IMG/VR virus record: IMGVR_UViG_3300027714_002832
Strand: one strand, 5' to 3'
Length of the DNA: 64,000 nt
DNA from: a virus
In this document: positions 1,309 through 60,754 of the stretch, in pieces
How the letters are laid out: the number at the start of each line of letters is the position of its first letter
Numbering within the stretch: the first letter of the stretch is position 1
Position numbers and translations under genes: made by a program
The notes under the pieces: generated by a model
The model's database searches: none
Seen by the model: the letters and a program-made list of their open reading frames with translations, nothing else
What the model was told of the DNA's origin: nothing

Positions 1309-2334
1309 ATGTATGACATTAAAACAATAGAATTGGAATTAGCAACTGTGTGCAATGCATATTGTCCCGTATGTATTCGCTATGATGCAAGAGACGAAGG
1401 TTTATTTTTAAACCCCAAAGCCAATCTTAATCAATTGATAGATCTAGATACTATCGACAAATGTTTTAAATCAGACAAAATACCCGATGACGTAGAAGTG
1501 AGTCTAGTTGGTACTTCTGGCGATCCACTTGCTCATCCTAAAATTTTAGATATTATCAAATTGATATTACATCATAAGTCGCATGCAACATTTAATATCC
1601 ATACTAATGGTGGACTTAGATCAACAAAATTATTCGCTGAACTTGCACATATATTAGGAGATGGCGATAGGTTTTGTTTTAGTTTAGATGGGTTAGCAGA
1701 TACCAACCATATATATCGAATAGGGGTTGACTTCAAGAAAGTAATATCTAATATGACTGCATTCATTGAAGCGGGCGGCACACCAATTTGGCAATTTGTG
1801 ATATTTGATTGGAACAAACATCAGATAGAAGAATGTAGAAAATATGCATTTGATTTAGGCTGTAGAGCATTTGAGTCTCGCGAAAATGTCAATCCCGGGC
1901 TTATAGATGTCGCCATCGCATCTGCAAATAAGCAGATAGTTAATGCTGTATCTCCATCGTTTTATTCTGATAGTATGGTCGAGTCTGATGACTATGATTA
2001 CATAGACGATGCGTGTATTCAAGAACAAGGAATATTCATGGCACCAGATGGTAAAGTATATCCTTGTTGTATGTTCTATGCGGAACGTGCGGGTCCAGGT
2101 TCTACATTGGTGTACGATACCATGTATAAGAAGTTTGGATATGATTGGAATGATTTAACTATATATTCACTAGATCAGATTCTAGATCATGCTTGGTGGG
2201 ATGAACTACATACCAGCATAGTTAAAAGTCCATGTGTTACATGCATCAATAACTGTGGTGCTGTTCGTGATGAACGTAGTAATTCTGACATAAACGAAAA
2301 GGCATATCAAAATATTTCAAGGACATTAATATGA
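1309..2334 (+). CDS. radical SAM enzyme with C-terminal SPASM/twitch-like Cys motifs
   Basis: CNAYCPVC (Cx3Cx2C) near N-term; C-terminal C..G....PCC and CVTCINNC; shares HTNG and DGLxDTxxIYR blocks with ORF 16049-17083. Confidence 0.8.
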   Translation: MYDIKTIELELATVCNAYCPVCIRYDARDEGLFLNPKANLNQLIDLDTIDKCFKSDKIPDDVEVSLVGTSGDPLAHPKILDIIKLILHHKSHATFNIHTNGGLRSTKLFAELAHILGDGDRFCFSLDGLADTNHIYRIGVDFKKVISNMTAFIEAGGTPIWQFVIFDWNKHQIEECRKYAFDLGCRAFESRENVNPGLIDVAIASANKQIVNAVSPSFYSDSMVESDDYDYIDDACIQEQGIFMAPDGKVYPCCMFYAERAGPGSTLVYDTMYKKFGYDWNDLTIYSLDQILDHAWWDELHTSIVKSPCVTCINNCGAVRDERSNSDINEKAYQNISRTLI

Positions 2335-10821: not shown

Positions 10822-10850
10822 ATAGACAACTGGTAACTTTACACTAACAA

Positions 10851-10875
10851 AGGAGCATTAAATGCTCCTTTTTGC
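10851..10875 (+). terminator. rho-independent terminator
   Basis: AGGAGCAT-TAA-ATGCTCCT hairpin then TTTTG. Confidence 0.75.
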
Positions 10876-10904
10876 TTGCTTTATTATTAATTCCGTAGTA
10901 TAAT
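10876..10904 (+). promoter_or_regulatory. candidate sigma70-like promoter upstream of clpS
   Basis: TTGCTT 10876-10881, 17 nt, TATAAT 10899-10904. Confidence 0.4.
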
Positions 10905-10931
10905 ATATGTTAACCAATAAAGGAAATACCA

Positions 10932-12143: not shown

Positions 12144-13394
12144 ATGCAACCGTTTGAACTATTGGATAGGTTTGAACTGATGTACCCTAACAACAGTAAG
12201 TTATCAGATCTGCGTAGGGCATACATTGACAAAGATCTAAGTAGTATCTTTCGATTACTACCAGCAGGACATAACGACTTACGTAAGGCAGTGATAGAAC
12301 AAAACTTACATAGTATCTTTCGATTACTACCAGAAAAACATGAAGACTTACGTAAGGCGGTGATAGAACAAAACTTACATAGTATCTTTCGTTTGCTACC
12401 AGCAGAGCATGAAGAACTAGGCAGAGCAGTGATAGAACAAAACTTGCATAGTATCTTTCGATTACTACCAAATGTTAGTAATGATGATCTTGAAGACTTA
12501 CGTAAGGCAGTGATAGAACAAAACTTGCATAGTATCTTTCGTTTGCTACCAGACGAGCATGAAGAACTAGGTAGAGCAGCAATAGAACAAAACTTACATA
12601 GTATCTTTAGACTAGTAGACGATGAAGACTTGCGTAGAGCAGTGATAGAACAAAACTTGCATAGTATCTTTAGACTAGTAGATGATGAAGAATTACGCAA
12701 ACTACTATTAGAAGATAATATTTGGAAGTTATGGCCTGTGCTATCTAGATACACTGATACACAGTTCGTTGAAGCATTCAAAAACTTCTTTGTCAATGAT
12801 ACTGAGATATGGGATGATTGTTTCGCAAGAGGACAGTTAGAAAGTAAACTATGGTTAGTGCGTGAATTGCAACAATGTAATATACCACTAGGCACTGTGT
12901 TTATTTGTGCGGGCTGGTATGCAACTATCGCTACTATGTTGTTTGAGAGCGACATGGAAATAGATAAGATTCGCAGTTTTGATATTGATACTACTTGTGC
13001 AGAAATCGCAGAAGTGTTTAATAAGCCTTGGGTAGTAGATGGATGGAAGTTTAAAGCGGCTTACAAAGATATACACGATATTGATTTCACAGGAAAAACA
13101 CCCTATAGTGTTTATAAATCAAATGGCGAAGAGCAATTGTTATGTGATAGTCCAGACACTGTTATAAACACAAGTTGTGAGCATATTGATAACTTTGAAG
13201 CATGGTATTCCAAGATACCAGATGGTAAATTGGTGATATTACAAAGTAATAACTTCTATGAAGTGGATGAACACGTAAATTGTGTTGCAGATGTTGATGA
13301 ATTTATTGACACTGCGCCTATGAGTACTGTATTGTACAGTGGAGAATTAGAGTTGCCTAAGTATACTAGGTTTATGATAATTGGATATAAGTAA
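12144..13394 (+). CDS. tandem-repeat protein (N-terminal repeats of the AVIEQNLHSIFRLLP motif, C-terminal globular domain)
   Basis: 416 aa; RBS AAGGAA upstream; about 7 consecutive 21-22-aa repeats LRKAVIEQNLHSIFRLLPxxHE(D/E). Confidence 0.7.
   Translation: MQPFELLDRFELMYPNNSKLSDLRRAYIDKDLSSIFRLLPAGHNDLRKAVIEQNLHSIFRLLPEKHEDLRKAVIEQNLHSIFRLLPAEHEELGRAVIEQNLHSIFRLLPNVSNDDLEDLRKAVIEQNLHSIFRLLPDEHEELGRAAIEQNLHSIFRLVDDEDLRRAVIEQNLHSIFRLVDDEELRKLLLEDNIWKLWPVLSRYTDTQFVEAFKNFFVNDTEIWDDCFARGQLESKLWLVRELQQCNIPLGTVFICAGWYATIATMLFESDMEIDKIRSFDIDTTCAEIAEVFNKPWVVDGWKFKAAYKDIHDIDFTGKTPYSVYKSNGEEQLLCDSPDTVINTSCEHIDNFEAWYSKIPDGKLVILQSNNFYEVDEHVNCVADVDEFIDTAPMSTVLYSGELELPKYTRFMIIGYK
12213..12714 (+). repeat. 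in-frame tandem DNA repeats (about 63-66-bp units, about 7 copies) inside the CDS
   Basis: repeated GCAGTGATAGAACAAAACTT(A/G)CATAGTATCTTTCG(A/T)TT(A/G)CTACCAG units. Confidence 0.8.
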
Positions 13395-14987: not shown

Positions 14988-16052
14988 ATGAACGCAGTTA
15001 ACGCTTGGACAGAGTTTCAACCATTGAAGAAAGTAGTATTGGGTGCACCATTCCCAGAAACTGCATTTGATTGGCACGAAGATGAAGAGACACGAGACAC
15101 TATGCGACAAATCTTCCGTGAAACAGCCGAAGATATTGAAGTACTAGCACAACTATTAGAAGCACGTGGAATTGAAGTGGTACGTCCCAAGAACATCTTT
15201 ACAATCACTGGTGAAGAACAGATTCAATTACCGTGGGCTCATTGTGCGTTTCCGAACCATCCATTAATGCCGCGCGATACGTTGATGCCATATGGTCATT
15301 CAATTTTTGAATGCTTTACAGGCGGTGACAATCGTTACTTTGAAAACCTAGCATACTATGATCACGTAGTAGAATGGTTTAAACAAGGTGCTGATTGGAT
15401 TTCAATGCCTGGCTGCATGGTAGAAACTGGTAAAGGATATGATGAATACGTAGCAGAGCAGCGTGTACTGTATCATGCTGCAAATATGATCAAGTGTGGT
15501 GATACTATCTTATTCAGTCAACCATACGAAGGTGACAACAAGCGTGGACGTGGTACGAATTTGGGCAAGGAATGGATGCAAAGAGAAATCAAACAGCGTT
15601 ATCCTGATACTAAATTTATTGATATTCCAATTGGTGGTCACATAGATGGTAAGATTGCATTATTGAAGCCGGGTGTTCTTATGACGTGGAACAAAGCATG
15701 GGTCCCAGAAGAATTCAAGAATTGGACAATCATTGAAGTAGAAGATGATTTTGACATGCCAGCAGATTTTCAAAATACACGTAAGCGTAGATACTATAAA
15801 GAGTATGTACAGAAGTGGTTAAGTCATTGGGTAGGTTATGCAGACGAGTCTGTATTTGATGTTAATGTATTATCATTGGATGAAAAGACGGTAATCTGTA
15901 CAGGTAAAAACGATGCAGCATTTGCTGAAATGGAAGCAAACGGAATTGAACCAATTGTTTGGCGATTCCGTCATCAGTATTTTTGGGATGGTGGTATCCA
16001 TTGCTTGACTAGTGATATCGTACGTGAAGGTAATTGTGAGAATTATTTATGA
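14988..16052 (+). CDS. amidinotransferase / guanidino-group-modifying enzyme superfamily protein
   Basis: C-terminal GGIHCLTSDIVREG resembles the catalytic-Cys GGxHCxT motif of amidinotransferases/ADI/DDAH. Confidence 0.55.
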   Translation: MNAVNAWTEFQPLKKVVLGAPFPETAFDWHEDEETRDTMRQIFRETAEDIEVLAQLLEARGIEVVRPKNIFTITGEEQIQLPWAHCAFPNHPLMPRDTLMPYGHSIFECFTGGDNRYFENLAYYDHVVEWFKQGADWISMPGCMVETGKGYDEYVAEQRVLYHAANMIKCGDTILFSQPYEGDNKRGRGTNLGKEWMQREIKQRYPDTKFIDIPIGGHIDGKIALLKPGVLMTWNKAWVPEEFKNWTIIEVEDDFDMPADFQNTRKRRYYKEYVQKWLSHWVGYADESVFDVNVLSLDEKTVICTGKNDAAFAEMEANGIEPIVWRFRHQYFWDGGIHCLTSDIVREGNCENYL

Positions 16053-17083
16053 GTATGCTATGGCGTGATAATATACAAAGCCTACAAGTAGATGTTACTA
16101 GTTATTGTAATGCTAAGTGTGGTGGATGCGCTAGAAATGACGACGGTCATGAAACAAGACCGGGTCTTATTCTTGAAAACTTTGATGTTGATGTATGGAA
16201 TCGTATGGCAGAGCATGATACCAAAGATATTTTTATTAATGAACTGGTATTAAACGGGAATTGGGGTGACTCTATGATGCATCCTAAAATTAAAGATATG
16301 GTTACAACATTTGCAAAATTTCATCCAGAAGCGAGTTTATATATCCATACCAATGGCAGTATGCGCACGACCAAATTCTGGGCTTCTTTTGCCAAAGTTT
16401 GTCGTCAATTCTCAAATCATCGTGTAGTTTTTGCAGTAGACGGTCTAGAAGATACACATGCGATATATCGTCGTAATACCGACTTTCTTAAAATTATGGA
16501 GAATATTAAAGCATTCACCGATGCGAATGGACGAGCGAGTGTAACCATGACCCTATTTGAACACAATAAACATCAAGTAGAAGAAGTTAAAAAAATAGCA
16601 CAATCGCTTAATGCAGATTTTACCTTACGTTACAGTCATGGAGATGGACTAGAAGTAATTGCGCCTGGCGAAAATTATATGATATATGCATGTGATGAAT
16701 TGCCCGAAGAGGAGGTAGAAGTAGAGCATGATAATTATAGATTAAGTGATTTACCAAATTATATGGATAATCTAATTATATCAGATGCAATAGAACCTGT
16801 CGCATCAACATGTCCGTGGTTAGCAGATCGTCAAGTGCAAATTGATCCATGGGGTACGGTGTGGCCATGTTGTCATATTAGTAATCATGCAAATTCCTTT
16901 TCATCAGAGTATACTGGGATCGCCGCAACTGATGATAATTTCGATGAAGGTAAACTAGCAAATAACCTGAAGCATACGCCGTTATATGATATCCTTAGTA
17001 ATCGGTGGTATGCGGATGTGTTACCTGATGCGGTAAAACATGAAAAATGGCTAGTTTGTCGTGATTCATGCTTTAGTGATTAA
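16049..17083 (+). CDS. radical SAM enzyme with C-terminal SPASM/twitch-like motif
   Basis: CNAKCGGC (Cx3Cx2C); C-terminal CPW...GTVWPCCH and CRDSC; paralogue of ORF 1309-2334. Confidence 0.8.
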   Translation: MSMLWRDNIQSLQVDVTSYCNAKCGGCARNDDGHETRPGLILENFDVDVWNRMAEHDTKDIFINELVLNGNWGDSMMHPKIKDMVTTFAKFHPEASLYIHTNGSMRTTKFWASFAKVCRQFSNHRVVFAVDGLEDTHAIYRRNTDFLKIMENIKAFTDANGRASVTMTLFEHNKHQVEEVKKIAQSLNADFTLRYSHGDGLEVIAPGENYMIYACDELPEEEVEVEHDNYRLSDLPNYMDNLIISDAIEPVASTCPWLADRQVQIDPWGTVWPCCHISNHANSFSSEYTGIAATDDNFDEGKLANNLKHTPLYDILSNRWYADVLPDAVKHEKWLVCRDSCFSD

Positions 17084-39916: not shown

Positions 39917-39970
39917 TTAAGATAAGTGGTCGACGATTCACAAAATTCGCAGTTACTAATGGAGATTAAA

Positions 39971-41908: not shown

Positions 41909-42691
41909 TTGGCAACCACATATGAAACTGTGTTAGAAGTAATTCATTACACAGACGAATTATTTTATTTCAAAACAACACGTAATCCAGGATTCAGATT
42001 TAAAGATGGTGAATTCGTTATGATGGGTTTAGATCATTTCTCAGAAAAACTTCAAAAGAATAAACCTATATTGAGAGCATACAGTATTGCTTCTCCATCG
42101 TACGCTGAATACTTAGAATTCTATAGTATCAAAGTACAAGATGGTCCGTTAACAAGTAAATTACAGCATGTTAAAGTAGGTGACAAAATCCTAGTAGGTA
42201 CTAAACCAACTGGTACATTAGTCCCAGATAATGTCAAGCCAGGTCGTAATCTATATATGTTAAGTTCGGGCACTGGCGTAGCACCATTTATGGGGTTAGC
42301 ACGTAGTCTTGATATTTACGACAACTATGATAATGTAATATTGGTACACGGTACTAGAAAGATCGAAGATTTAGTTTGGAAAGATATGTGGTTAGGTCTT
42401 AACGAACACGAATTGTATGGTGAGTTAGTGCAGAATAAATTCCATTATTACGCAACGGTTTCTCGTGAAGAATATGAGAATGAAGGCAGAGTAACTACCG
42501 CACTATTCGATCATTCGATAGAAGACAAGTTACAGTTACCACATCTTGATTCTGAATTCGATAGAGTTATGATTTGCGGGTCTATTCCATTCAATGAGGA
42601 TTTACAAAATCATCTACTTGAAAAAGGATTCGTTGAAGGTAACATGAGTGATCCAGGCACATTCGTAGTAGAACGTGCATTCGTAGGATAA
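41909..42691 (+). CDS. ferredoxin/flavodoxin-NADP(+) reductase (Fpr-like)
   Basis: FAD-binding RAYSIASP, NAD-binding LYMLSSGTGVAPF blocks of plant-type FNR family. Confidence 0.75.
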   Translation: MATTYETVLEVIHYTDELFYFKTTRNPGFRFKDGEFVMMGLDHFSEKLQKNKPILRAYSIASPSYAEYLEFYSIKVQDGPLTSKLQHVKVGDKILVGTKPTGTLVPDNVKPGRNLYMLSSGTGVAPFMGLARSLDIYDNYDNVILVHGTRKIEDLVWKDMWLGLNEHELYGELVQNKFHYYATVSREEYENEGRVTTALFDHSIEDKLQLPHLDSEFDRVMICGSIPFNEDLQNHLLEKGFVEGNMSDPGTFVVERAFVG

Positions 42692-42695: not shown

Positions 42696-42720
42696 AGCCC
42701 AGTTTAACTGGGCTTTTTTA
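42696..42720. terminator. bidirectional rho-independent terminator between convergent genes
   Basis: AGCCCAGTT-TAA-CTGGGCT hairpin flanked by A and T runs. Confidence 0.75.
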
Positions 42721-43524
42721 TTTGCGTTGTTTAATCTTTTCAATATAATTAGTACTTAGGTGATCATAAATCCCATCAAAAAATTGAAACTTACTCCATG
42801 CTTTAAATGTACCTTTTACTTTATCAACAAATCGTTGCCACCAAGTAAGATCAGTTAATATTTTAAAATCATAAGTTATATAATTTAACTGTCCAACATG
42901 ACGATAATATCCTAATATCGGAACTTGTGGTATAATGTCATTATTGTTTACGAAGCGATATGCTTCTATGTTATCAAACTGTACACCCCATTCCTTATTG
43001 CCTGTTCTTGGGCATCCATATGTATACAATACCAAATCTGCGTCTAATTTAGCCACCCTACTTGCAAGGATAGTTGCCATTGCAGCACCTAGACTATGTC
43101 CTGTTATAACAAGTTTTTTAGTGGTTACTCGCTTACCTAACCATTTAATAATTGATGGGTATAACTTATCAATTTCTGTTTTAAATCCATAGTGTACATA
43201 ACCAACTGTTTCACTATCGGATGGCCATGCTTTAATGTCTGCTAACATATCTTTTGCTTGTGTTGGCTCGGTTCCTCGTAATGCTATAACTATATAGTCT
43301 GGCATAACAATACCATATCCTTGTGCACTATCGTTTGTAAAAAACTTGATACTAGAATATTTTATATTATTATCTTTTAAGTATGCAGACATTCTTGCTT
43401 TATCATAATATGCTTCATCGCATAAATGTGCACATAATTCTGCAATTTTCCAATCTACTTCTTTATTTTGTGGCATGTAATATCTCCAATTATGTATATA
43501 TTTAGTCAAATAAAGTGTTGACAA
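42718..43524 (-). CDS. class-3 lipase (alpha/beta hydrolase)
   Basis: nucleophile elbow ITGHSLGAAMATILA, Lipase_3-like context. Confidence 0.7.
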   Translation of the reverse strand: MSTLYLTKYIHNWRYYMPQNKEVDWKIAELCAHLCDEAYYDKARMSAYLKDNNIKYSSIKFFTNDSAQGYGIVMPDYIVIALRGTEPTQAKDMLADIKAWPSDSETVGYVHYGFKTEIDKLYPSIIKWLGKRVTTKKLVITGHSLGAAMATILASRVAKLDADLVLYTYGCPRTGNKEWGVQFDNIEAYRFVNNNDIIPQVPILGYYRHVGQLNYITYDFKILTDLTWWQRFVDKVKGTFKAWSKFQFFDGIYDHLSTNYIEKIKQRK

Positions 43525-46661: not shown

Positions 46662-47310
46662 TAACTGGTTTAATAACCATATCTCATTAGGTGGCAGTGT
46701 TCATATAGTACATGACACTGTTTCACTTATCGGTTCGCCCAAACCATATCTAACTGATATCTATGATAGATTCTCAAAACTAACATTCGAAGATGTAGAG
46801 CATTTCATGGGCTCTCGTATCTTAGACAATTCAATGCCCAATCGTGCATTGATCGAAGATGCAACTAAGTTGTATTATCTAGAAGAACAAATCAAACAAG
46901 ACAAACTAATATTCAAACCGCAACTATTACACGAACCTTGGGCAGATAGATATCGTGTTCATCCTGGTTCGGGTCGTATCGCAGCAATGTGGAAATGTGA
47001 TCCCATAAAACCTATAGAAAGCATCTATATTCACTTCAATGAAGACATATTTACTATCCCTCAGAATAGCACCGAAGTGAGGTCCTCAGAGGCTTTCTTA
47101 GACGCAATCACGTATAAGGCGACTAATAGCATAGATTGTACAGTGGAAACAGCGTTAAAACGTACGGAACGAGACACCGAATGGAATCCAACAATAGTAA
47201 GTACCGTAAATTGGGAATTCATTCGTTATAGTGAAGGGAAATATTTCTTGGAATATAAGCAAGCATGGCGTGACTACGCACTCGACTTATGGTTACTACT
47301 TAATCGCTAG
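46627..47310 (+). CDS. hypothetical protein
   Basis: 227-aa ORF. Confidence 0.45.
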   Translation: MLSSQNNFSIINNWFNNHISLGGSVHIVHDTVSLIGSPKPYLTDIYDRFSKLTFEDVEHFMGSRILDNSMPNRALIEDATKLYYLEEQIKQDKLIFKPQLLHEPWADRYRVHPGSGRIAAMWKCDPIKPIESIYIHFNEDIFTIPQNSTEVRSSEAFLDAITYKATNSIDCTVETALKRTERDTEWNPTIVSTVNWEFIRYSEGKYFLEYKQAWRDYALDLWLLLNR

Positions 47311-48000
47311 ATTAGATCTAACCCAGTCATGCATTTCAGGCGTGTTATGCGCATTGATAACTAACCAATAACTATCTTTAGTACTTGCATTAAATAATGC
47401 ATGCTCTAATGTAGTGTTCACTGCATATAGTTGGCCCATTTCAAAATAAAGCGGCTTATCTTCTAACATAAATCTAAACCACGGATTTGTAGTATTAGAT
47501 AACGCCATTATTAATCTAAACGTATCCACATTTTCACCACGACTATCTCGATGTGGTGGGAAATAACCGCCTGGCGATACTCTCAATATATGCGTTCTAC
47601 CACATAAATGTAATATATCACCAAGTAACTCTTTCATTGAAGTGAGATCATACACAGGGGTAGTTTTATCAAAATCTTTTTCACTGTAATCTGTATTATA
47701 TTTTCTATTCCATTCATACAGACTATTCAATGCGGGACCAGATTGATTTAAACCACTTTCATTTATTACACATAGACCGTCTCGCTTAATATGTGGTTTA
47801 AATTCATTGTATTGTTCCCATTTATCGTCAAACTGTGATAGTTCTTCCATAAATCTGCTAGTATTAATACTCTTATCTAATAAGATTTGATTTCCTAAAT
47901 TAAAAATTACAGACATATAACTATTCCTTAAAAGATTTATCGCCGGGAAACAATGGTAATTGTGTACCTGGCGCACGCTTAGGTATCTTACTATCTGCAC
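47296..48000 (-). CDS. cupin / 2OG-Fe(II)-oxygenase-like protein (candidate)
   Basis: GGYFPPHRDSRGE (HxD) and downstream LEHALFN His; first gene of minus-strand island. Confidence 0.4.
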   Translation of the reverse strand: MQIVRYLSVRQVHNYHCFPAINLLRNSYMSVIFNLGNQILLDKSINTSRFMEELSQFDDKWEQYNEFKPHIKRDGLCVINESGLNQSGPALNSLYEWNRKYNTDYSEKDFDKTTPVYDLTSMKELLGDILHLCGRTHILRVSPGGYFPPHRDSRGENVDTFRLIMALSNTTNPWFRFMLEDKPLYFEMGQLYAVNTTLEHALFNASTKDSYWLVINAHNTPEMHDWVRSNLAIK

Positions 48001-50586: not shown

Positions 50587-51237
50587 TTAATTTTTTGAAC
50601 GGTTAATCCATTCTTCATCTGTCACCTGTATAGGATCAATACTTAATTCATTCAATGACAAATGTTCAGGCAATATCATCGCATATTCAATACAATCAAC
50701 CGCTTCTTCAAATGTCATCAACTTGCGTCCTGGATGCTTGTCTGCGTTATTCGGCAATGTACCAAACGTAACATAACTCACCTTTGGGCCACCTTGCCAG
50801 ATACTTTTCAATCCCATAGCGTTACTCGCACTACGTAATGCTTTCTTCTCTTGTTGATATGTCCAATCCGACCCTTTTGTTGCCCTGTCCGTGGTGGACC
50901 CGACAGACACTATATGTAGGGATTTCCGGGCACTCTGTGCGGTTTTATATACTACATCTAGTAGCAGTGCCTGATGGTACTGCCATAGTGCACTACAGTT
51001 AATAAAAATGTCGTATTCTAGTGCTTTATTTGCAACAGTTTTTTTCACATGATTCAATGTTAGATCATGGTCACTGATGCTTTGACTAATAAAATCTGTC
51101 TGTGGATATCGTTTTAATATCTCACTCGCTAGACCAATCTCTGGATTACCTGTACATAATATTTTCTTATTAGTTAAATCAATCACTTTACTTTCCTTTT
51201 TACTACTGGACGCAACGTCCATATTTCTTTTGTACAT
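50587..51237 (-). CDS. short-chain dehydrogenase/reductase-like NAD(P)-binding protein
   Basis: ILCTGNPEIGLA Rossmann turn, INCSAL (NNAG-like), YQQEK (YxxxK). Confidence 0.45.
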   Translation of the reverse strand: MYKRNMDVASSSKKESKVIDLTNKKILCTGNPEIGLASEILKRYPQTDFISQSISDHDLTLNHVKKTVANKALEYDIFINCSALWQYHQALLLDVVYKTAQSARKSLHIVSVGSTTDRATKGSDWTYQQEKKALRSASNAMGLKSIWQGGPKVSYVTFGTLPNNADKHPGRKLMTFEEAVDCIEYAMILPEHLSLNELSIDPIQVTDEEWINRSKN

Positions 51238-51288: not shown

Positions 51289-52551
51289 TTAGTTATTGTC
51301 ATTGATTTGTCCTTTAAATTCTGGACATGATTCTACTAACGTACCACGTTGCAATTCATCCATCTTCAAATTATAATCAATAAATTCTTGCCAGTGTTCA
51401 GCATGTGTATTCCCAGCATTTAAATACTTAATCACATCGTCTACCTTAGGCCATGCTTTATGACTTTTTAAATTATACAATGCCAACGTCTTTAAATGAT
51501 GTGGCAATACTTGTATATTCATACTACGCGGATGGTTTAATATATTGAAATATAACTGATCATGTTCTAATCCACGTGATTCCGCAAACTCGATAACCTC
51601 GTGTAGTGCACATACATTCAATGCTTGTACCGTACAATGAATCTGAATATATACATTATCCAATTTAGATAATTCATCAAAATTCTTTTCTACTATATGC
51701 CAATGACTAGGGTAACGAATATATCTGTCACGCGCACCAATTGCATCAATTGAGCAATTTAATTGTACACGCTTGAAATGTGACCAATATTCGATCATCT
51801 TCGGTGGCACATTAGTTAGGTTGGTGTTGTACTTTAAACGAATGCCCGATGCAAGATCATTTTCAATACAATAGTCTAACAACTTATATTGACTAACTGC
51901 CAATGTAGGCTCACCACCAGTTAAATAAATTTCTTCAACCGTATGAGCAATTTCAGTGAATGTAATACCTGTCTTTTCCCAATCTGGCCATTCAGTCATG
52001 GTATTCATGAATTCTAATGTGTCTTCATCCAATTTCTTTGGTGGATCTAAATATGCTGCATCAACTACTTTATTCCAATCTTTAACCCACATGCTACTTG
52101 CCCACGGATTACACATGCGACATTTTAGGTTACATAAGTTACCCAAACGTAAGTCAACATATTTCACATCAACTGGAATTTCAACATCTATCTTCACATC
52201 TTCTTTCAGCCACTTTTCATTAAATCCTGCTCGCGCACTACGAATGCCAGCATCTTCTTCTCTGAAACAACGCGCACACATATCTGGTCGCTCACCATCG
52301 ATGAACTGTTTTCTGATAGTTGTATAGGTTGGGCTATTCCATACTTCATCTAAATCATGCTTGTAGATTTTATATGGCTTGCCATTCTCTTGTAATATTG
52401 TGTTCTCACCGGGCGTGCTATTACAGCATACTCGATAAGATCCCGCAGCATTAGTTGCTACGTGCATAAAGGGTAAAACACAGAACGTGTCACTTACTTT
52501 TTTTGTCATTTGTTTAAATCCATTTTGTATAATCTTTGCCATCACTATCAT
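51289..52551 (-). CDS. radical SAM enzyme with N-terminal twitch-like Cys motif
   Basis: N-term CVLPFMHVATNAAGSYRVCCNS ... CARCF then CNLKCRMC (Cx3Cx2C). Confidence 0.8.
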   Translation of the reverse strand: MIVMAKIIQNGFKQMTKKVSDTFCVLPFMHVATNAAGSYRVCCNSTPGENTILQENGKPYKIYKHDLDEVWNSPTYTTIRKQFIDGERPDMCARCFREEDAGIRSARAGFNEKWLKEDVKIDVEIPVDVKYVDLRLGNLCNLKCRMCNPWASSMWVKDWNKVVDAAYLDPPKKLDEDTLEFMNTMTEWPDWEKTGITFTEIAHTVEEIYLTGGEPTLAVSQYKLLDYCIENDLASGIRLKYNTNLTNVPPKMIEYWSHFKRVQLNCSIDAIGARDRYIRYPSHWHIVEKNFDELSKLDNVYIQIHCTVQALNVCALHEVIEFAESRGLEHDQLYFNILNHPRSMNIQVLPHHLKTLALYNLKSHKAWPKVDDVIKYLNAGNTHAEHWQEFIDYNLKMDELQRGTLVESCPEFKGQINDNN

Positions 52552-53446
52552 CTAGTATCATTACATGATCAATCAATTGTTGTTTATTATCTTGATCATC
52601 CAATGCACCCGGAGCCATGTATGCGGGACTAATCAAATCACTCGCTCTATTGAAGTGAATATCGTGACTTGTCGCCCAATCATTCACTTCGTGAATGTTA
52701 TTAATATTTAGTACACTTGGTAAACACGTAATACATATACTCGTATTATCAGGTGAACTCTTGTGTATGTCAATGATATTATTACTTACTTGTTCCCAGT
52801 TTGCTCCTCGTCTAAGGTATTCAAAACGCTCACCTATGGCATCTACACTTGCAACTATTATAACACGTTTAAACGATTCGAACAAGGGATAATATGCATT
52901 AATATCTATTGTTCCATTAGTAATGAATTGTAATTCAATCGTAGATGAAACGTCTGCATCGATCAGATATTTAATTATCTTCTTTACTTGTGGTATCATG
53001 AATGGTTCACCACCTGTAAATTTAAGAATCTTTGCAAAATGCAATTGTGGGTATATCTGCTCAATATCTTTGTGCCAACCTGTATTTGCTTTGCGCTTAC
53101 CAGTTTTTACTGCCCACGAACTTGAACTATAACTATCACATGAGACGCACGTGAGATTACACGTGTTGTTAATCTTTAAGTCCCATTGCTCTGTGCCAAT
53201 GCTATCTGCTAGTACATCATTCATATACATTCGATAACTCTTACCATTTGATTCTTCATCTTGTTGGCACTCTATGCATTCAGGCAACCAACCTCGCAAT
53301 GACTCAACATAGTATTTGTTGTGCAACGATTCCCAATCATCGGTAATTGCAACACCAGATGATGCCGCATTCCAAGCACAGCATGGTCTAACTTCGCCTG
53401 TTACGCCTATCGTTACTGCATGTTTAAACGCCAAGCATTTTGGCAT
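52514..53446 (-). CDS. radical SAM enzyme with N-terminal twitch-like Cys motif
   Basis: N-term CLAFKHAVTIGVTGEVRPCCAW ... CIEC then CNLTCVSC. Confidence 0.8.
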   Translation of the reverse strand: MPKCLAFKHAVTIGVTGEVRPCCAWNAASSGVAITDDWESLHNKYYVESLRGWLPECIECQQDEESNGKSYRMYMNDVLADSIGTEQWDLKINNTCNLTCVSCDSYSSSSWAVKTGKRKANTGWHKDIEQIYPQLHFAKILKFTGGEPFMIPQVKKIIKYLIDADVSSTIELQFITNGTIDINAYYPLFESFKRVIIVASVDAIGERFEYLRRGANWEQVSNNIIDIHKSSPDNTSICITCLPSVLNINNIHEVNDWATSHDIHFNRASDLISPAYMAPGALDDQDNKQQLIDHVMILDDSDGKDYTKWI

Positions 53447-54179
53447 AGCCGCGATTCACCTGTTGTTTAAATTCATCACTAGGACCACCATCAAAGATCA
53501 TATGTATCCTTGGTTCTTCACTTTTATTCCATACAGAATGCTTATATCCTGTATTCAATTTCATCACTGAACCTGCTTCAAATGGAACAATACCCATACC
53601 TTCAAATACGAATTCGCATCCATCTGGATTGTTTAATGCTACATTAGTTGCACCTACTCCAACTGGATTAGGTCTATCGTTGTGAATGCCCAACCAACCA
53701 TCTGGTAACAGTGCCATGAACCTTACACGAGCAAACTGGTTGTACAACATTTCATCTTGCATCCATTGTACTGTTTTAGGGCAAAATTTAGCAATATCAG
53801 TCCAGTCACTATGGGTTTCTTCATAATCATCTGGTAAGTTATAATCTTCTGCACAATTAGTATGTACACTGCTTATTCCATGAATCGACAAACTCAACCA
53901 CCCCGAACTACAAGGACGGTGTGCAGTAAAGCATGACGTATATAACAAATGATTTGCTTCTTCAAACAAATCCTTGTGTGGTACATTAATTTCTGGTATC
54001 GATATATATGGAAAACGGGTATTGTCCATGATGTAATCAACATCGTGCTCACTTTCTTCTAAAAAATTCCCTGCATCTAATATTTTAAAATCAGGTTTAA
54101 TAATTCTATTTTCTTCATGCCATATAATTGATTCATCATCAATTTCTTCCCTATCTAAAGGTGATCCTTCAAACCACAT
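53424..54179 (-). CDS. aspartyl/asparaginyl beta-hydroxylase-like cupin oxygenase (candidate)
   Basis: WLGIHNDRPNP (HxD) and YKHSVWN (distal His) in a beta-rich C-terminal half. Confidence 0.45.
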   Translation of the reverse strand: MWFEGSPLDREEIDDESIIWHEENRIIKPDFKILDAGNFLEESEHDVDYIMDNTRFPYISIPEINVPHKDLFEEANHLLYTSCFTAHRPCSSGWLSLSIHGISSVHTNCAEDYNLPDDYEETHSDWTDIAKFCPKTVQWMQDEMLYNQFARVRFMALLPDGWLGIHNDRPNPVGVGATNVALNNPDGCEFVFEGMGIVPFEAGSVMKLNTGYKHSVWNKSEEPRIHMIFDGGPSDEFKQQVNRGYAKMLGV

Positions 54180-54189
54180 AATTTATCTC

Positions 54190-55749
54190 CTATTGTTCAA
54201 ATGTTAATGTTTCATTATTGGTTGTACTTATAATAGCCCTTGATGGACATGTTAAGTCGTTATCGTTTATATCAGTGCCCGAAAACCAACAATCATCATG
54301 CAATTCATTTAATTTAGTTATTAAACTAATGAAACTCAATTCCATTGCAAACGGTTTACTAAGCATCTTTGGCACAATATAACTATAGATATTAGATGTC
54401 CACATCAATGTTCTTTTATTTTCTACTGCTTCAAATAATTTATCATGTCCATATATTAAATCACATTCAATTACTTCCCAGTTGCTCTGTCTGATTCTAT
54501 CCCATACTGATAACCAATTAGTATCTCCATCAAATTGCTGTATTACGTTAGGCCATCTCTCAACAGTCAAGTCTCTTAAATTTCCATTTGCATCTGGATG
54601 CTGTTCAATCCATGCATCGACAAACTCAGGATAGTTTATACCATTCCATTGTTCTAGCATATCTCGTTTAAATTTACAACTCAATGGATCAAAATCATAT
54701 AACACAAATTTCGTGTCTTTTGTAAAACCATACTTGTATGCATAGTAGAATAATTTAAAGCCCGCAGTGGCACCGACATATTGATCAAATACCGTTCCTT
54801 CAATTTGTTCTGCAATACCAGGCTGACTAGATTCTGTATTTACAAAATATATAGGACTATCTGGTGCGAACATCTCTCTTATCATTCGATTTGCTTGAAA
54901 TGTTAGTTTATCACTGTCAAACGGTAAACCTTGTATAGCCTTCTCAAATTCAATTGAACCAACATGCGGCTTCATCGTGGCTAAACAATTCATAAAATCT
55001 GCACTCAATCCTGGGACAATTAGTTCTTGTCGCAATGACCATGTCAATAACGGATTGCACAATTTATGATGGTATTGTTCATTAAATTCTTCGTGTGTTA
55101 TCCACGGATTCCATGTAGCATGTTTGATATTTAATCGTGCAGCGCCTAGTTTTACAATACCAAATAAACTATCCTCAAAATCTTCAACTATTCCTTGTTT
55201 TCTAGTAACCCAATTGTCACTTGGCTTTTCATGTCGTGTACCTTGACGAGAATACCGATCTGCGGGATCTTGATTGTATAATACATCAGCGGGATCTTGT
55301 GCACCTTGCTCATACCACGTATCTAAATTAATCAGTATGATGTTTCTTTCAAAATGAGAATATCTTTCATCATCGGTTTGTAATATATTTCCTGCAACTA
55401 TCCATTTAGTGATATCAAATTCTTCATTAATACGATTTATTTCATCAAGTAATTTTAAGTTAACATCATCAGATGCTGACCAAGTGCCGTCAAACCACAT
55501 ACATACATAACGATATCCTAATTTGCGCATAGCGATCATCCAACTAATTTCGGATTGTCCTACAATGTTAACTATGCCTCCACGAAGATGATTATTATGT
55601 TCTACCTCTGCTATTTCACGTAACTTTTGCTTTAATATAGGTGTGTCACTTAATTCAATACTATCAGTGTTATTTGAATTGAATGCGTGAACTATTGGCC
55701 ATGAATTTTCTCCATGATAATAATTCCACAGACTCTGTCCTTTCTTCAT
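54190..55749 (-). CDS. large hypothetical protein (possible Rossmann/methyltransferase-like segment)
   Basis: 519 aa; Gly-rich YVGATAGFKLFYYAYKYG followed by acidic LYDFDPL, weak. Confidence 0.5.
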   Translation of the reverse strand: MKKGQSLWNYYHGENSWPIVHAFNSNNTDSIELSDTPILKQKLREIAEVEHNNHLRGGIVNIVGQSEISWMIAMRKLGYRYVCMWFDGTWSASDDVNLKLLDEINRINEEFDITKWIVAGNILQTDDERYSHFERNIILINLDTWYEQGAQDPADVLYNQDPADRYSRQGTRHEKPSDNWVTRKQGIVEDFEDSLFGIVKLGAARLNIKHATWNPWITHEEFNEQYHHKLCNPLLTWSLRQELIVPGLSADFMNCLATMKPHVGSIEFEKAIQGLPFDSDKLTFQANRMIREMFAPDSPIYFVNTESSQPGIAEQIEGTVFDQYVGATAGFKLFYYAYKYGFTKDTKFVLYDFDPLSCKFKRDMLEQWNGINYPEFVDAWIEQHPDANGNLRDLTVERWPNVIQQFDGDTNWLSVWDRIRQSNWEVIECDLIYGHDKLFEAVENKRTLMWTSNIYSYIVPKMLSKPFAMELSFISLITKLNELHDDCWFSGTDINDNDLTCPSRAIISTTNNETLTFEQ

Positions 55750-55758
55750 TTTTCGTCC

Positions 55759-56985
55759 TTATATATCATTATTGATGTCTATTAAAAAATCAGTAAGTGG
55801 CATATCAAGATATTGTTCTATCATCTCACTTAATTTAATCTTAGGATTGTATCTATTTTCTAAATCACGTGTGTACTTACGCATCTTAGTATATTGTATA
55901 TAATCTCGTTGATTATTTTCCATATAAGTAGCAAATGTATCCATCTCTGGATGTTCTTTTTCATGCTTTCGTAATTTATTAATAATAGCCGATCTATAAG
56001 GCTCAGGCCATATCGCTGGGCTTAGTATCTTTGGTGTATGTAATATGTTAGCAGTAATGAATGTCAATTCAATGTCACTCTGCTTCCAGTATTCATAAAA
56101 TTCTGGCATCTGAAATATATTATGTGCTTGTATAGTAATACCCAATGCTAAGTCTATATGCTCTATGTCATTCAATACACTCAGATTAGATTCTACTGTA
56201 CTCCAATCACCACCTTCACGAATGTAATCATAAACATCATTGACACCATCAAGTGATACTTTGATATTAACATGCTTGAATTGACTCCAAATTTCTAGCA
56301 AATTATATTTTTTAAATGTTAGATGACTCAGATTAGTAGCATATCGCAATTTGATCGTAGATCGTAGATGCTCTGGTATCGATTCAAGTAAGTCGTAATG
56401 CTCTTGATTAATGATAGGTTCGCCACCAGTGAATTGTAATACTTTAACTGTATCCCAGAACCCATCCCATTTGCCTATGCTATCAAACAACGTAGTTGGT
56501 CGTAGGAGACGTGTTTCGTGATGCTCTGTACCCATATACTTCTCAATGATGTCTAAGTCCTGTACGCGCTTGTACGAACTATGTGTACTACACATAATAC
56601 ATTTCAAATTACAGAAGTTAGAAACCTTCAACTCTATCCACAATGGTGGATTATCTACAGAGTAATCATCATTGAGTTTGATCAAGTCTTTATAATTATC
56701 CCAATCATCGTCAAACCATTGCTGTCTATTTGATACAACACCACTTGCTTCATTATGCCAACATACATCACACTCTGATGGTATCTCATTGCTAGTGAGT
56801 GCCCTACGAAGTTCTTTGTAGTTGTCATTATTCCATGTGTCTTCAATAGCAGCACCCGGCTCATTGAAAATCTTAGTTTGTGCTTCACAGCAAGGTACTA
56901 TATCGCCGCCCGCTGAACCGTACGTATGCATGAATGGTATCATACAAAATGATGTTGTTTTGGCTAGTTCATTAATATCTTTCAT
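55759..56985 (-). CDS. radical SAM enzyme with N-terminal twitch-like Cys motif
   Basis: N-term CMIPFMHTYGSAGGDIVPCCEA ... CDVC then CNLKCIMC. Confidence 0.8.
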   Translation of the reverse strand: MKDINELAKTTSFCMIPFMHTYGSAGGDIVPCCEAQTKIFNEPGAAIEDTWNNDNYKELRRALTSNEIPSECDVCWHNEASGVVSNRQQWFDDDWDNYKDLIKLNDDYSVDNPPLWIELKVSNFCNLKCIMCSTHSSYKRVQDLDIIEKYMGTEHHETRLLRPTTLFDSIGKWDGFWDTVKVLQFTGGEPIINQEHYDLLESIPEHLRSTIKLRYATNLSHLTFKKYNLLEIWSQFKHVNIKVSLDGVNDVYDYIREGGDWSTVESNLSVLNDIEHIDLALGITIQAHNIFQMPEFYEYWKQSDIELTFITANILHTPKILSPAIWPEPYRSAIINKLRKHEKEHPEMDTFATYMENNQRDYIQYTKMRKYTRDLENRYNPKIKLSEMIEQYLDMPLTDFLIDINNDI

Positions 56986-58105
56986 TTAATAATTTCTTAT
57001 ATCCTTGTATATATTCTTCTGCATCATTATTACGTAAATCAAACAATTCGTACATTTGATCTAAATAAATTTTACTATTATCTTCTGCGTTATTTGTTTT
57101 ACACAATGAAATTAATAATGTATATGCTTTCTTTAATTTCCAGTGACAGTCTTTATATTGCTCTTCTACTATCAATCTCAAATTATTCTTGAATGTATCT
57201 GTCTGATGTGCGATACTCAACCAGTCTGGCTCATGTATAGTTTGCAACATTACCTGCACACCTATCTCAAATCTTGCCCATCTCATTAGATCTATTAACA
57301 CTGGTGCATTTAATACACCAACTGTGCAAGCGACAAATACTTCTACCTTGTCGTATTTAGTTCCCAATTCTGTCCATTGCTTCAGTACAGATTCAATAGC
57401 AGGGAATTTGGATGGGTGACGTAATATATCGTTTAATTCGCCAACTGCATCTATACTATTCGTAATTCGCAAGTTATTGAATTCTAATAGATAATCTAAG
57501 TTCATCTTCGCTGGCCAGTATGTGCAATTCGTAAATATCTCAATATCGATCTGAGGTGCAATACCACTATCTACCAATCGTTTAATGAATCGTAAAAACT
57601 GCTTATGCATGAACGGCTCACCACCTGTCACTTTCATATATTTCAAATGAGATAGTTGATCCATGGATAGTGCATCTAAATCATATTCTCTATTCTTTGC
57701 AAAATGTTCTAATACTTCAACCATCACTAAATCAATCGCTAGTGCGTCTTTATCCCATGTATGACTATACTCAGGTCCGCAACCAACACATGCAAGATTA
57801 CATAGATTGCCCACTGTAATCTCTAGATATTCTAATTGGATTGAATCTGTGAAATCATCAAAGAATTCGTCTGCTTCTGTTCGCATACTAGTAAGACCAG
57901 TATCTTCATCGGCTTTGCATTTCCAGCAACCCTCATGCCATTCGTTCCTTAACATCGTCTCGCGAATATCTTTAAACACATACTTGTTATCATCATCAGA
58001 TAAGTAACGATCATGAAATTTACAACATGGTGTAGCGGGAGTACCGTTTGCAAGCATTGCTGCTTTGAACGGATATGCACAAGCGTTACTCGGCAAATTT
58101 GCCAT
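56972..58105 (-). CDS. radical SAM enzyme with N-terminal twitch-like Cys motif
   Basis: N-term CAYPFKAAMLANGTPATPCCKF ... CWKC then CNLACVGC. Confidence 0.8.
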   Translation of the reverse strand: MANLPSNACAYPFKAAMLANGTPATPCCKFHDRYLSDDDNKYVFKDIRETMLRNEWHEGCWKCKADEDTGLTSMRTEADEFFDDFTDSIQLEYLEITVGNLCNLACVGCGPEYSHTWDKDALAIDLVMVEVLEHFAKNREYDLDALSMDQLSHLKYMKVTGGEPFMHKQFLRFIKRLVDSGIAPQIDIEIFTNCTYWPAKMNLDYLLEFNNLRITNSIDAVGELNDILRHPSKFPAIESVLKQWTELGTKYDKVEVFVACTVGVLNAPVLIDLMRWARFEIGVQVMLQTIHEPDWLSIAHQTDTFKNNLRLIVEEQYKDCHWKLKKAYTLLISLCKTNNAEDNSKIYLDQMYELFDLRNNDAEEYIQGYKKLLNERY

Positions 58106-59003
58106 TATTTTTATACCTCTTTAGTGCTTTCGCTAAGTTGATGCGATTGTATGCGCGATCACGATGGAACATATCCCATTCTGGTGTATCAGGTGCTTGG
58201 GCAATATGTATCGTATTAGTCTCTTGCAATCCATAATGTTCACATACAATTTTATGTGCTTCTCTATATTTGTTAGGCATAGTATCTGGGCTGAACTTTT
58301 TCATTAACGCATTAGACAATGCTACATTCAAATGAATACCGTGATTCCATTCTGTCTGCACTCGCATACCACAACGCTCTTCATCTAAACGACTGAACAC
58401 AATACCAGCACGCCAGTTACCACCACTTAATCCTTTACCAGTGCTGAATGCAACCATCTTAATACAATCATGTGACAAATCAACATCAATATCAAAACAA
58501 GTTCCAAACCATGCACAATCTACCAGAATAGGAATATTCTTTGCTGTACACTCTTCAATCAACCAATCCCATCGCTCGTGCTTGCGTCCGTTACCACTGA
58601 ATGGAATACTAACGATAACCGCATCACCTACGGATAACCCAGTATCGTCAATGCTATCTGACCAATTCATTTCTGGTCCCAACCATACATCACGGTTATA
58701 CGGATATTCACCACGGAACACCTTTAAGTTCTGTCCAGTAGCGATGCACCAATACTGCCACCATTCTAATGCTTGTGTAGTACCTAAACTAACATAACGA
58801 TCAGGATATGTATCTAACCCAGTAAAGTTATTTAATTTGCTGCTTTGTATCCATTTGGGATATAATTCTAAGAATTCTGCTGGGGCTGTACCAACTCCTG
58901 CTAAATTCATATTTGGCAATACTTCATCTTGTATATAGTCAATAAATGGTTGATTCCAAATACTGTTGCCTGTCTTACCAAAATCGGGGTTGTTACTCAT
59001 CAT
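58086..59003 (-). CDS. truncated PLP-dependent aminotransferase-like protein
   Basis: AFSTGKGLSGGNWRAGIVFS resembles fold-type-I aminotransferase SxSKxxGxxGxRxG block; only 305 aa. Confidence 0.4.
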   Translation of the reverse strand: MMSNNPDFGKTGNSIWNQPFIDYIQDEVLPNMNLAGVGTAPAEFLELYPKWIQSSKLNNFTGLDTYPDRYVSLGTTQALEWWQYWCIATGQNLKVFRGEYPYNRDVWLGPEMNWSDSIDDTGLSVGDAVIVSIPFSGNGRKHERWDWLIEECTAKNIPILVDCAWFGTCFDIDVDLSHDCIKMVAFSTGKGLSGGNWRAGIVFSRLDEERCGMRVQTEWNHGIHLNVALSNALMKKFSPDTMPNKYREAHKIVCEHYGLQETNTIHIAQAPDTPEWDMFHRDRAYNRINLAKALKRYKNNGKFAE

Positions 59004-59514: not shown

Positions 59515-60754
59515 AACTCTCGATTTCTGGTATATACTGCAATGTGTCTGTTTTTCGTAATCTATCTAAATCGTCAGTGTACCTTAGAAACCAATTCCAT
59601 TGCTTATCAGATTCTTGATCATCTTCGTTTGAAAACATTAACCCATTACGAATGGATTCAATACCTGTCTGATATCCACCTTCATCTGAGTTTGCACTAG
59701 TAAGTGGCCACATTTCTAAATTAGGGATATGCTTTATTTTATCATACGCCAATGCTTTCAACTCTTCTGGCATATTTCCTATATTCAAATAGCCAGGATG
59801 AACTACCACGTTACTCATCGAAATACTTGCACGATGCGCATGATGGGTAGCAAACCATTCCCAGACTTTATCTAAATTAAATATATTGGTAATCATTACC
59901 GTAACAGCAAACACTACCTCTACATTTGGGATATCGTAGAATTTTTCTATGTTCTCGTTCAATTGATCCCATGTGTAACTAGGACCGCCACGAATAATAC
60001 TATATAATTCATCAGTTGCTTCTACACTAATTAATAATTCTACATGCTTAAAGTGACTGAATAATTCTCTAAATTCTTCTTTGAATACGGTTGCATTTGT
60101 ACTGATGTCTAATGATACGCTACTTGCAATACCATTGTCTACAAACCATTGCAATACTGATAAACAGATTTCATCATACAACGGCTCACCACCACGCAGT
60201 GCCACCCATTGCAGATTGCGAAAATACTCTGGATTCTTAAATAGATTATCCATGAAGTCTATACTTGCACCATGATAACCTATTGGCTGTTTACTCCAAT
60301 ATTCTGGCTTTTCTCTATTAAGAGATTTACCATCTTTAGTCCAGCCTGTACTTACGAACGGATCACAATGAATACATGCTAGATTACATTTATTACTAAG
60401 AGTAAAATCAAGATACCTAATATCAGGAACAGAATCTACTGTAAGATCTTTACTCGCAACCTTTGTTTCATGATCAATTCTATCCCAGAAATATAAACGA
60501 CGACTGCGCCCAACTTTCTCTTTCTTCACGCAACCCTGACATGATTCTGGAATCTCACGCTTACGATGTGATTCTCTCAATTCAGTGTATGCATCTCCCT
60601 CTAGTATTTCACGCAATGATTGCTTACCAATATTACCTAATTTACCTTTATAGATAATGTCTGGGATGACGTTACCACCCCATTTAACAGTTAATGCGTG
60701 CCAAGGTGCTAAACAGGTAGGTAGATCTTTTCTATTTACGAATGTGTTTTTCAT
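59504..60754 (-). CDS. radical SAM enzyme with N-terminal Cys-rich region
   Basis: N-term CLAPWH...CQGC then CNLACIHC (Cx3Cx2C). Confidence 0.8.
   Translation of the reverse strand: MKNTFVNRKDLPTCLAPWHALTVKWGGNVIPDIIYKGKLGNIGKQSLREILEGDAYTELRESHRKREIPESCQGCVKKEKVGRSRRLYFWDRIDHETKVASKDLTVDSVPDIRYLDFTLSNKCNLACIHCDPFVSTGWTKDGKSLNREKPEYWSKQPIGYHGASIDFMDNLFKNPEYFRNLQWVALRGGEPLYDEICLSVLQWFVDNGIASSVSLDISTNATVFKEEFRELFSHFKHVELLISVEATDELYSIIRGGPSYTWDQLNENIEKFYDIPNVEVVFAVTVMITNIFNLDKVWEWFATHHAHRASISMSNVVVHPGYLNIGNMPEELKALAYDKIKHIPNLEMWPLTSANSDEGGYQTGIESIRNGLMFSNEDDQESDKQWNWFLRYTDDLDRLRKTDTLQYIPEIESYVR

Follow-up and report, generated by a model that had tools for sequence, protein, structure and literature searches.

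A twitch-type domain ahead of the radical-SAM core in five paralogues of a viral gene cassette

What is the cysteine-bearing domain that precedes the catalytic core in a series of paralogous radical S-adenosylmethionine (SAM) proteins carried by a virus, and what might such a series of proteins do? The question is posed by IMG/VR record IMGVR_UViG_3300027714_002832, from which a stretch of 64,000 nucleotides (nt) – the window – was analysed. A preliminary description of this DNA had proposed that several of its radical-SAM (rSAM) proteins bear, at the N-terminus, an auxiliary-cluster module of the kind that SPASM/twitch enzymes carry at the C-terminal side of the barrel. The five proteins concerned, rS1 to rS5, are given below with their lengths in amino acids (aa), their cysteines, the predicted position of the twitch domain, and their scores against NCBIfam NF033640 (N_Twi_rSAM, product name "twitch domain-containing radical SAM protein"; curated cut-off 170 bits, profile length 398).

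51289..52551, minus strand: rS1, 420 aa; C24, C42C43, C92xxC95, core C140/144/147; twitch at about residues 20-110 (nt 52222-52494); NF033640 375.2 bits; Pfam SPASM at residues 24-95
52514..53446, minus strand: rS2, 310 aa, short, without the C-terminal helical region; C4, C22C23, C57xxC60, core 96/100/103; twitch at residues 1-75 (nt 53222-53446); NF033640 186.1 bits
55759..56985, minus strand: rS3, 408 aa; C14, C32C33, C72xxC75, core 125/129/132; twitch at about residues 10-90 (nt 56716-56958); NF033640 313.1 bits; Pfam SPASM at residues 14-76
56972..58105, minus strand: rS4, 377 aa; C9, C27C28, C60xxC63, core 102/106/109; twitch at about residues 5-78 (nt 57872-58093); NF033640 224.4 bits
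59504..60754, minus strand: rS5, the Asp variant, 416 aa; C14, P-D32-I33 instead of CC, C72xxC75, core 123/127/130; twitch at about residues 10-90 (nt 60485-60727); NF033640 255.0 bits; Pfam SPASM E 1.6e-10

The paralogues are only 23-29% identical in pairwise comparison, and in their alignment the invariant cysteines are the first Cys, the CxxC pair and the three of the core. The core motif CNLxCxxC is itself invariant; Pfam PF04055 is matched at 26.4-42.3 bits, with rS5 slightly under the gathering score. A Cys-bearing domain ahead of this motif, as first described, is borne out for all five minus-strand open reading frames (ORFs), although several of its dimensions had to be revised. The pattern C-x2-P-x(9-11)-G-x(4-5)-P-C-C holds for the first Cys and the CC doublet of rS1-rS4, whose spacing is exactly 18 in all four; rS1, however, has V rather than P before the doublet, and rS2 has F rather than P at position +3. 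The CxxC pair, placed in the preliminary description about 25 aa after the doublet, lies 32-49 aa past it, and the CNLxCxxC core follows 39-53 residues past the CxxC. The first Cys stands 92-116 aa upstream of the core motif in the five paralogues, a range that overlaps the 80-100 aa given earlier and extends beyond it. In rS5 the CC doublet is missing and the CxxC present, as had been noted, but the pair is 58 aa past the first Cys and not about 40. Across 78 loci, C-x16-20-CC plus CxxC was found upstream of the core in 194 of 268 family ORFs: the N-terminal motif is not due to chance. Conservation of the CC doublet, judged from 36 aligned members of the family, exceeds 90%. Neither the five paralogues nor the 36 aligned members have any further conserved Cys, and the proteins thus have no Cys-rich C-terminus, in agreement with the preliminary description. 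The full SPASM pattern (seven or eight cysteines including CX2CX5CX3C) is not found either; there are 3-5 conserved non-core cysteines and no CX2CX5CX3C.

Profile comparisons identify the domain. All five paralogues exceed the NF033640 cut-off (186-375 bits; E 1e-54 to 4e-112), with matches that start at profile positions 1-5 in every case and end at 387-397 in four proteins and at 332 in rS2. Pfam SPASM (PF13186) is above its gathering score in rS1, rS3 and rS5 (within residues 14-95) and under threshold in rS2 and rS4. The Asp variant rS5 also matches the stand-alone SPASM protein family TIGR04304 (E 2e-7), and a homologue 64% identical to it carries the NCBI name "twitch domain-containing radical SAM protein". 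A single-sequence search of the PDB gave a spurious 36-residue match only. An 82-position profile was then made from the N-terminal domains of 44 diverse sequences; its sole significant match among all PDB sequences was to residues 168-237 of BtrN (E 3.2e-6). The BtrN residues C169, C187, C232 and C235 – reportedly its four cluster ligands (Goldman et al. 2013) – are aligned with the first Cys of the family, the first C of the doublet and the CxxC pair. All four positions are Cys in rS1-rS4, the second being Asp in rS5, and the C-x17-C spacing of BtrN (18) is identical to that of the family.

Two different identities for the N-terminus were considered. No zinc-ribbon family is matched in NCBIfam or Pfam, the domain profile matching the BtrN twitch instead, and the B12-binding family PF02310 is matched by none of the five paralogues. 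The preliminary description had named both as outcomes that would overturn it; neither was found, so its reading of an auxiliary-cluster-type module stands, supported by the passing of NF033640 in five proteins, by SPASM in three and by the BtrN twitch. The comparison with SPASM/twitch profiles that it proposed is thereby in hand, as is the database search for the N-terminal arrangement: a curated NCBIfam family already models this order. Together these data support the homology of the N-terminal domain with the twitch (half-SPASM) domain, here placed before the barrel, and the domain would on the same grounds be expected to bind an auxiliary Fe-S cluster.

The predicted domain lies within residues 4-95, upstream of the core, and not in the C-terminal position usual for twitch/SPASM enzymes. 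Three other rSAM proteins of the window had been described as conventional in this respect, and a listing of their cysteines confirmed C-terminal Cys motifs in each:

1309..2334, plus strand: second rSAM of the "comp1" type, C-terminal twitch; C236, C253C254, C309/312/316
16049..17083, plus strand: "comp1" rSAM, C-terminal twitch with CC doublet; Pfam Radical_SAM, and SPASM at residues 255-341; C255, C274C275, C337, C341
47921..49138, minus strand: rSAM with C-terminal Cys, outside the N_Twi family, 405 aa; C329, C351, C372, C377; NF033640 42.7 bits, over the core only

Proteins of the comp1 family (about 363 aa) have conserved cysteines at C20/24/27 (the core) and then at C255, C274C275, C337 and C341, and comp1 is the conventional-order counterpart of N_Twi. 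An hhalign comparison of the two families aligned core to core (positions 120-321 of N_Twi with 13-192 of comp1; probability 98%, E 2e-14), while an alternative alignment paired N_Twi positions 19-86 with comp1 positions 268-353. A dedicated N-domain profile gave the same pairing with the C-terminal twitch of comp1 (probability 83.5%, E 8e-6). Core-to-core plus N-terminus-to-C-terminus alignment indicates a swapped domain order, and supports the earlier proposal that the module is permuted to the N-terminus; the swap may be the outcome either of a true circular permutation or of a fusion with a separate twitch/SPASM gene. The second Cys of the doublet, present in rS1-rS4 and in the ORF at 16049-17083, is a fifth conserved Cys common to the N-terminal and C-terminal twitch families of the neighbourhood.

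It had also been allowed that a C-terminal SPASM might come to light once a frameshift was corrected. There is no room for one between neighbouring genes. The rS2 ORF overlaps the start of rS1 and that of rS4 the start of rS3, the end of rS3 is 10 nt from the gene for a 519-aa protein (below), and the end of rS1 is 52 nt from the next gene. Because the ORFs abut or overlap their downstream neighbours, and because NF033640 is matched to its end in four of the proteins, a frameshifted SPASM is ruled out and the N-terminal reading stands.

Searches of the PDB found no solved structure of a family member. For rS1, AlphaFold2 was given the 36-sequence alignment and returned a model with a mean predicted local distance difference test score (pLDDT) of 90.3 and a predicted template modelling score of 0.85, with high confidence through residues 20-120. 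The N-terminus is predicted to form a beta-hairpin (30-33, 38-40) followed by helices (67-114) that include the CxxC, barrel strand beta1 starting at 131; past beta6, residues 350-408 would form a helical region. In the BFVD collection about 20 phage proteins match the model over its full length (TM 0.7-0.8).

A further question concerns the Asp of rS5, which could reflect decay of a ligand. The second ligand position is Asp ("PD[IVA...]") in all of about 108 rS5 homologues, down to 35% identity, leaving three Cys ahead of the core. The Asp is thus a conserved trait of the subfamily rather than a sign of decay, and it suggests an Asp-ligated or open iron site. Precedents exist for three Cys with a site left open (MoaA) and for ligation by Asp (AuxII of PqqE); in both of these enzymes the auxiliary clusters are held by C-terminal domains, whereas the domain of rS5 is N-terminal.

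The family to which the paralogues belong is large. A profile search of 1.84 billion representatives returned 6,941 clusters (E <= 1e-30, 50% identity), and rS1 has 2,768 relatives in a 90%-identity database. Many representatives, at 770-1,400 aa (P0361-P0417 among them), match the full N_Twi profile two or three times; such proteins are either tandem N_Twi_rSAM units that have fused or gene calls that were merged. Relatives occur at no fewer than 578 IMG/VR loci; in the 80 that were fetched there are 1-8 copies per approximately 20 kb (median 3). Cellular matches are overwhelmingly to metagenome-assembled genomes (MAGs) of Bdellovibrionota, with up to 10 copies per 21 kb, and otherwise to a few other MAGs. 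Cultured carriers are Vibrio phage K566 (four copies), Ralstonia phage RsoM2USA and the bacterium Poseidonocella sedimentorum. The family is thus concentrated in large phages and Bdellovibrionota, usually as tandem arrays of 2-10 paralogues. An alignment was needed as query for the genome scan, a query with a single protein having confirmed no relatives; INPHARED phages gave no near-identity DNA match to the 47-62 kb region, and an exact-protein look-up of rS1 returned no record.

What do the paralogues travel with? Neighbouring genes were clustered across 78 loci and then across 80 viral loci, and partner families were counted in 80 viral and 76 cellular loci. The comp1 rSAM family is found in 75 of the 80 viral loci; the other partners encoded in the window are as follows.

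12144..13394, plus strand: comp2 family protein, with N-terminal tandem repeats; family of about 280 aa in 63/80 viral loci
14988..16052, plus strand: StrB1-type amidinotransferase; family profile against StrB1 (1bwd) E 8e-69, also HsvA, SxtG and AGAT; 8/80 viral loci
47296..48000, minus strand: second cupin, weakly Asp_Arg_Hydrox-like, 234 aa; Pfam E 9e-4; family in 24/80 viral loci
50587..51237, minus strand: Rossmann protein resembling short-chain dehydrogenases/reductases, 216 aa; groups with a family whose Bdellovibrionota member weakly matches adh_short_C2; 29/80 viral loci
53424..54179, minus strand: Asp/Arg-hydroxylase-type cupin, 251 aa; Pfam PF05118 E 2e-11; family in 29/80 viral and 9/76 cellular loci
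54190..55749, minus strand: 519-aa protein, a conserved partner; family in about 25/80 viral loci
58086..59003, minus strand: pyridoxal phosphate (PLP)-dependent fold-type I protein (class I/II aminotransferase fold), 305 aa, its end overlapping the start of rS4; family of about 310 aa in 15/80 viral loci

The five paralogues form a conserved cassette with the PLP-fold protein, the SDR-like Rossmann protein, the two cupins and the 519-aa protein; the genes for the amidinotransferase and the comp1 rSAMs are placed elsewhere in the window. The PLP-fold partner is modelled by AlphaFold2 with a pLDDT of 93.3, and D162, S187, K190 and R198 are invariant in it. The 519-aa protein gave no Pfam, PHROG or PDB match, whether searched alone or as a family profile. 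Homologues of it were found in 18 loci, related viral contigs encoding two paralogues as a pair, and one member of the family alignment also matches Asp_Arg_Hydrox; this is probably a 733-aa Bdellovibrionales ORF (locus L067, 2383-4584), which would then be a fusion linking the two families functionally. A third recurrent family, comp3 (about 240 aa), is present in 48 of the 80 viral loci and absent from the window. Profiles of comp2 and comp3 have no PDB or Pfam match; a methyltransferase-like C-terminal part of comp2 and a GT-A-like appearance of comp3 come from motif inspection by eye only, and we do not claim them. The comp2 ORF of the window carries some six tandem repeats of 69 nt (23 aa; nt 12242-12671, 77% matches) that encode "..LRKAVIEQNLHSIFRLLP.."; these lie at the N-terminus, and other comp2 members, of about 280 aa, are without them. 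The amidinotransferase and comp1 rSAM genes (14988-16052 and 16049-17083) overlap by 4 nt, and in Campylobacter phage CP220 members of these two families make up the core of a five-rSAM module. A syntenic Tara scaffold holds the same cassette gene set, next to SufE.

Small ORFs were inspected in the same loci. For two in the cassette (87 and 83 aa), homologues were found on no contig but their own; not being conserved, they were rejected as precursor peptides. A highly conserved 74-aa ORF ("..ATNNNI..HHNSQNWY..YGxLPS..GP..") lies between the comp2 and C-terminal-twitch rSAM genes in 18 of the 80 viral loci (L087, L090 at 2708-2929, L091 and L094 among them); the window has no member of this family, whose conservation extends over its whole length, unlike that of a leader-plus-core peptide.

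The window comes from a large marine phage of the T4-like kind, with genes for a gp44-type clamp loader and a T4-like ligase, together with ClpP/X/S, IF3 and S21. The host-like genes among these (4131-11240 and 23539-24219: two ClpP, ClpX, ClpS, translation initiation factor IF3 and ribosomal protein S21) are unusual for a phage. Further genes of the window include:

18947-19468: phosphoribosyltransferase
28866-29930: SbmA/BacA
32128-33099: phosphoribosyl pyrophosphate (PRPP) synthetase
39926-41185, plus strand: IscS, cysteine desulfurase; Aminotran_5 E 4e-84
41229-41612, plus strand: IscU, very similar to its bacterial counterpart; E 1e-65 against solved IscU
41909-42691, plus strand: bacterial-type ferredoxin-NADP reductase (FNR); FNR E 2e-78
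42718-43524: class-3 lipase

The IscS-IscU-FNR set could plausibly be an in-house supply of clusters and electrons for the eight rSAM enzymes of the phage.

Taken as a whole, the observations are probably best explained if rS1-rS5 are N_Twi_rSAM paralogues – each a BtrN-type twitch domain followed by a radical-SAM (beta/alpha)6 core – that serially tailor a non-peptide substrate. In rS1, an auxiliary [4Fe-4S] cluster most likely has C24, C42, C92 and C95 as its ligands. The canonical cluster would cleave SAM to give a 5'-deoxyadenosyl radical, which would abstract hydrogen from the substrate, and the auxiliary cluster may, by analogy with BtrN and anSME, act as conduit or sink for the electron. 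The cassette would run successive tailoring steps on a substrate that is most likely a sugar, a cyclitol or an amino-acid-derived small molecule, and the phage IscS-IscU-FNR could load and reduce the clusters.

We prefer a small molecule (sugar, cyclitol or amino acid) to a peptide as substrate because family members and their relatives are found in sugar-type contexts, because the window encodes a StrB1-type amidinotransferase and a PLP-fold partner, and because no small ORF of the cassette is conserved. As to the contexts, P. sedimentorum has two family genes beside two B12-rSAMs, an FdtA-like isomerase, an NDP-hexose 2,3-dehydratase and an EryCIII-type glycosyltransferase; in Bdellovibrionota, GT2 glycosyltransferases neighbour family genes; and in CP220, relatives with a C-terminal twitch are found beside an amidinotransferase, two nucleotide-sugar transferases and a PAP2 phosphatase. 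Separate B12-rSAM genes also occur near family members at other loci.

A number of points weigh against this explanation. Cluster binding, cluster type and chemistry are all read from sequence. A twitch domain can hold a [2Fe-2S] cluster, as in SkfB, and the family conserves five cysteines where four suffice for [4Fe-4S]. In its class I/II fold the PLP partner resembles amino-acid enzymes, for which this fold is typical, rather than sugar aminotransferases, which have the DegT fold. Among solved proteins, those nearest to the core in sequence are the peptide maturases SkfB and TigE, and the amidinotransferase gene is 35 kb away in the other strand block. Given these arguments for peptide and for sugar, our commitment is limited to serial radical tailoring of a small molecule.

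A more specific proposal can be built on this, although we regard it as doubtful. The cassette would be a pathway, borne by phages and predators, to a new product – a sugar, cyclitol or amino acid decorated with amino or guanidino groups – made by serial oxidations by N-terminal-twitch rSAMs together with PLP-dependent transamination and amidino transfer; the open or Asp-ligated cluster of rS5 would serve a distinct step, and with the twitch at the N-terminus, the C-terminus would be left free for a helical cap that selects the substrate. The product of such a pathway is possibly aminoglycoside-like or a surface glycan unit. If true, the freeing of the C-terminus would account for the explosive diversification of the paralogues.

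The alternative that survives best, unlikely as it is, holds that the proteins are peptide or protein maturases – of the kind that make peptides synthesized on ribosomes and then modified post-translationally (RiPPs), or acting on a virion or host protein – with an auxiliary cluster used as in sactisynthases or epimerases, and with the cupins hydroxylating the same polypeptide. Asp_Arg_Hydrox enzymes classically act on protein residues, the best PDB matches of the core are SkfB and TigE, and the 74-aa ORF is conserved with the comp2 and C-terminal-twitch genes in 18 other viral loci. That ORF, however, is missing from the window and its end-to-end conservation is unlike that of a leader-plus-core peptide; the 87- and 83-aa ORFs have no homologues beyond their own contig, Pfam and NCBIfam reveal no RiPP recognition element or other precursor-recognition domain, and the cellular contexts, with their deoxysugar enzymes and glycosyltransferases, are of the sugar type.

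Still less probable is a role of the cassette in hypermodification of phage DNA or nucleotides, in which its rSAMs would tailor a base-appended group with the help of the PLP enzyme and transferases. Known thymidine hypermodification uses rSAM and PLP enzymes, and the phage setting, the PRPP synthetase and phosphoribosyltransferase of the window, and the presence of ThyX nearby in 15 viral loci all fit such a function. Yet the same families form large chromosomal arrays in Bdellovibrionota beside GT2 genes and occur in a deoxysugar cluster of Rhodobacteraceae, and among the ORFs scanned no hydroxymethyluracil kinase or pyrophosphorylase-type gene was identified. That the N-terminal cysteines are a structural zinc site or a degenerate remnant, leaving single-cluster rSAMs, is very improbable: a four-Cys C...C...CxxC pattern can bind Zn, one Cys is lost in rS5 and Pfam SPASM is under threshold in rS2 and rS4, but the only PDB match of the domain profile is the BtrN twitch with its four Cys aligned, no zinc-ribbon family is matched, Cys conservation exceeds 90% in a family of thousands, and the replacement in rS5 is no random residue but an Asp, strictly conserved and of a type that is a known ligand of Fe-S clusters.

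How much of this is new? The N-terminal twitch architecture is already catalogued by NCBI, which has a curated model for it and names products accordingly; because a family model exists, the arrangement itself is not new, and the sequence observation alone adds little. Within the literature open to search, no relevant paper was found on N-terminal twitch/SPASM, NF033640 or Bdellovibrio rSAM expansions. The interest lies in a large family without solved structure or described function, and in its striking distribution – arrays of 2-10 paralogues in large phages and predatory Bdellovibrionota that travel with fixed partner enzymes. The window is a compact and complete example, with the cassette alongside the phage's own IscS-IscU-FNR, and the cultured carriers (Vibrio phage K566, Ralstonia phage RsoM2USA and Poseidonocella sedimentorum) make the structural role of the N-terminal twitch and the product of the cassette open to experiment.

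Among the closest known systems is that of Campylobacter phages CP220 and CPt10, for which a block of five rSAMs and an amidinotransferase, interchangeable and of unassigned role, was described by Timms et al. 2010 (PMC2853527); a similar trio is found in cyanophage S-SCSM2R (PMC12801897). Like the window, CP220/CPt10 combine a phage-borne multi-rSAM block with a StrB1/AGAT-type amidinotransferase and sugar transferases, and the CP220 rSAMs belong to the same C-terminal-twitch family as the window ORFs at 1309 and 16049. The two differ in that all rSAMs in the stretch of CP220 examined are of the C-terminal-twitch type, none matching the N_Twi model. With anSME, SkfB, BlsE and EpeE the N_Twi proteins align over only some 200 residues (the barrel); the auxiliary domains of these four are C-terminal, and anSME has two auxiliary clusters, with seven or eight Cys that the N_Twi family lacks. 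BtrN (2-deoxy-scyllo-inosamine dehydrogenase, the prototype twitch enzyme; PDB 4m7s/4m7t) shares with N_Twi a homologous twitch, the CxxC and an rSAM core of the same SPASM/twitch group. Its twitch is C-terminal (residues 168-237 of about 250), whereas that of N_Twi is N-terminal, and N_Twi has in addition an extra conserved Cys (in the CC doublet), an insert of 20-50 aa following the hairpin and, at the C-terminus, some 90 aa of helical region. From the NF033640 family there is no difference in kind: all five paralogues are above its cut-off, four match nearly the whole profile, and the order – N-terminal twitch, then rSAM core – is the same, the particulars being that rS2 is without some 65 C-terminal profile positions and that rS5 belongs to the Asp subgroup.

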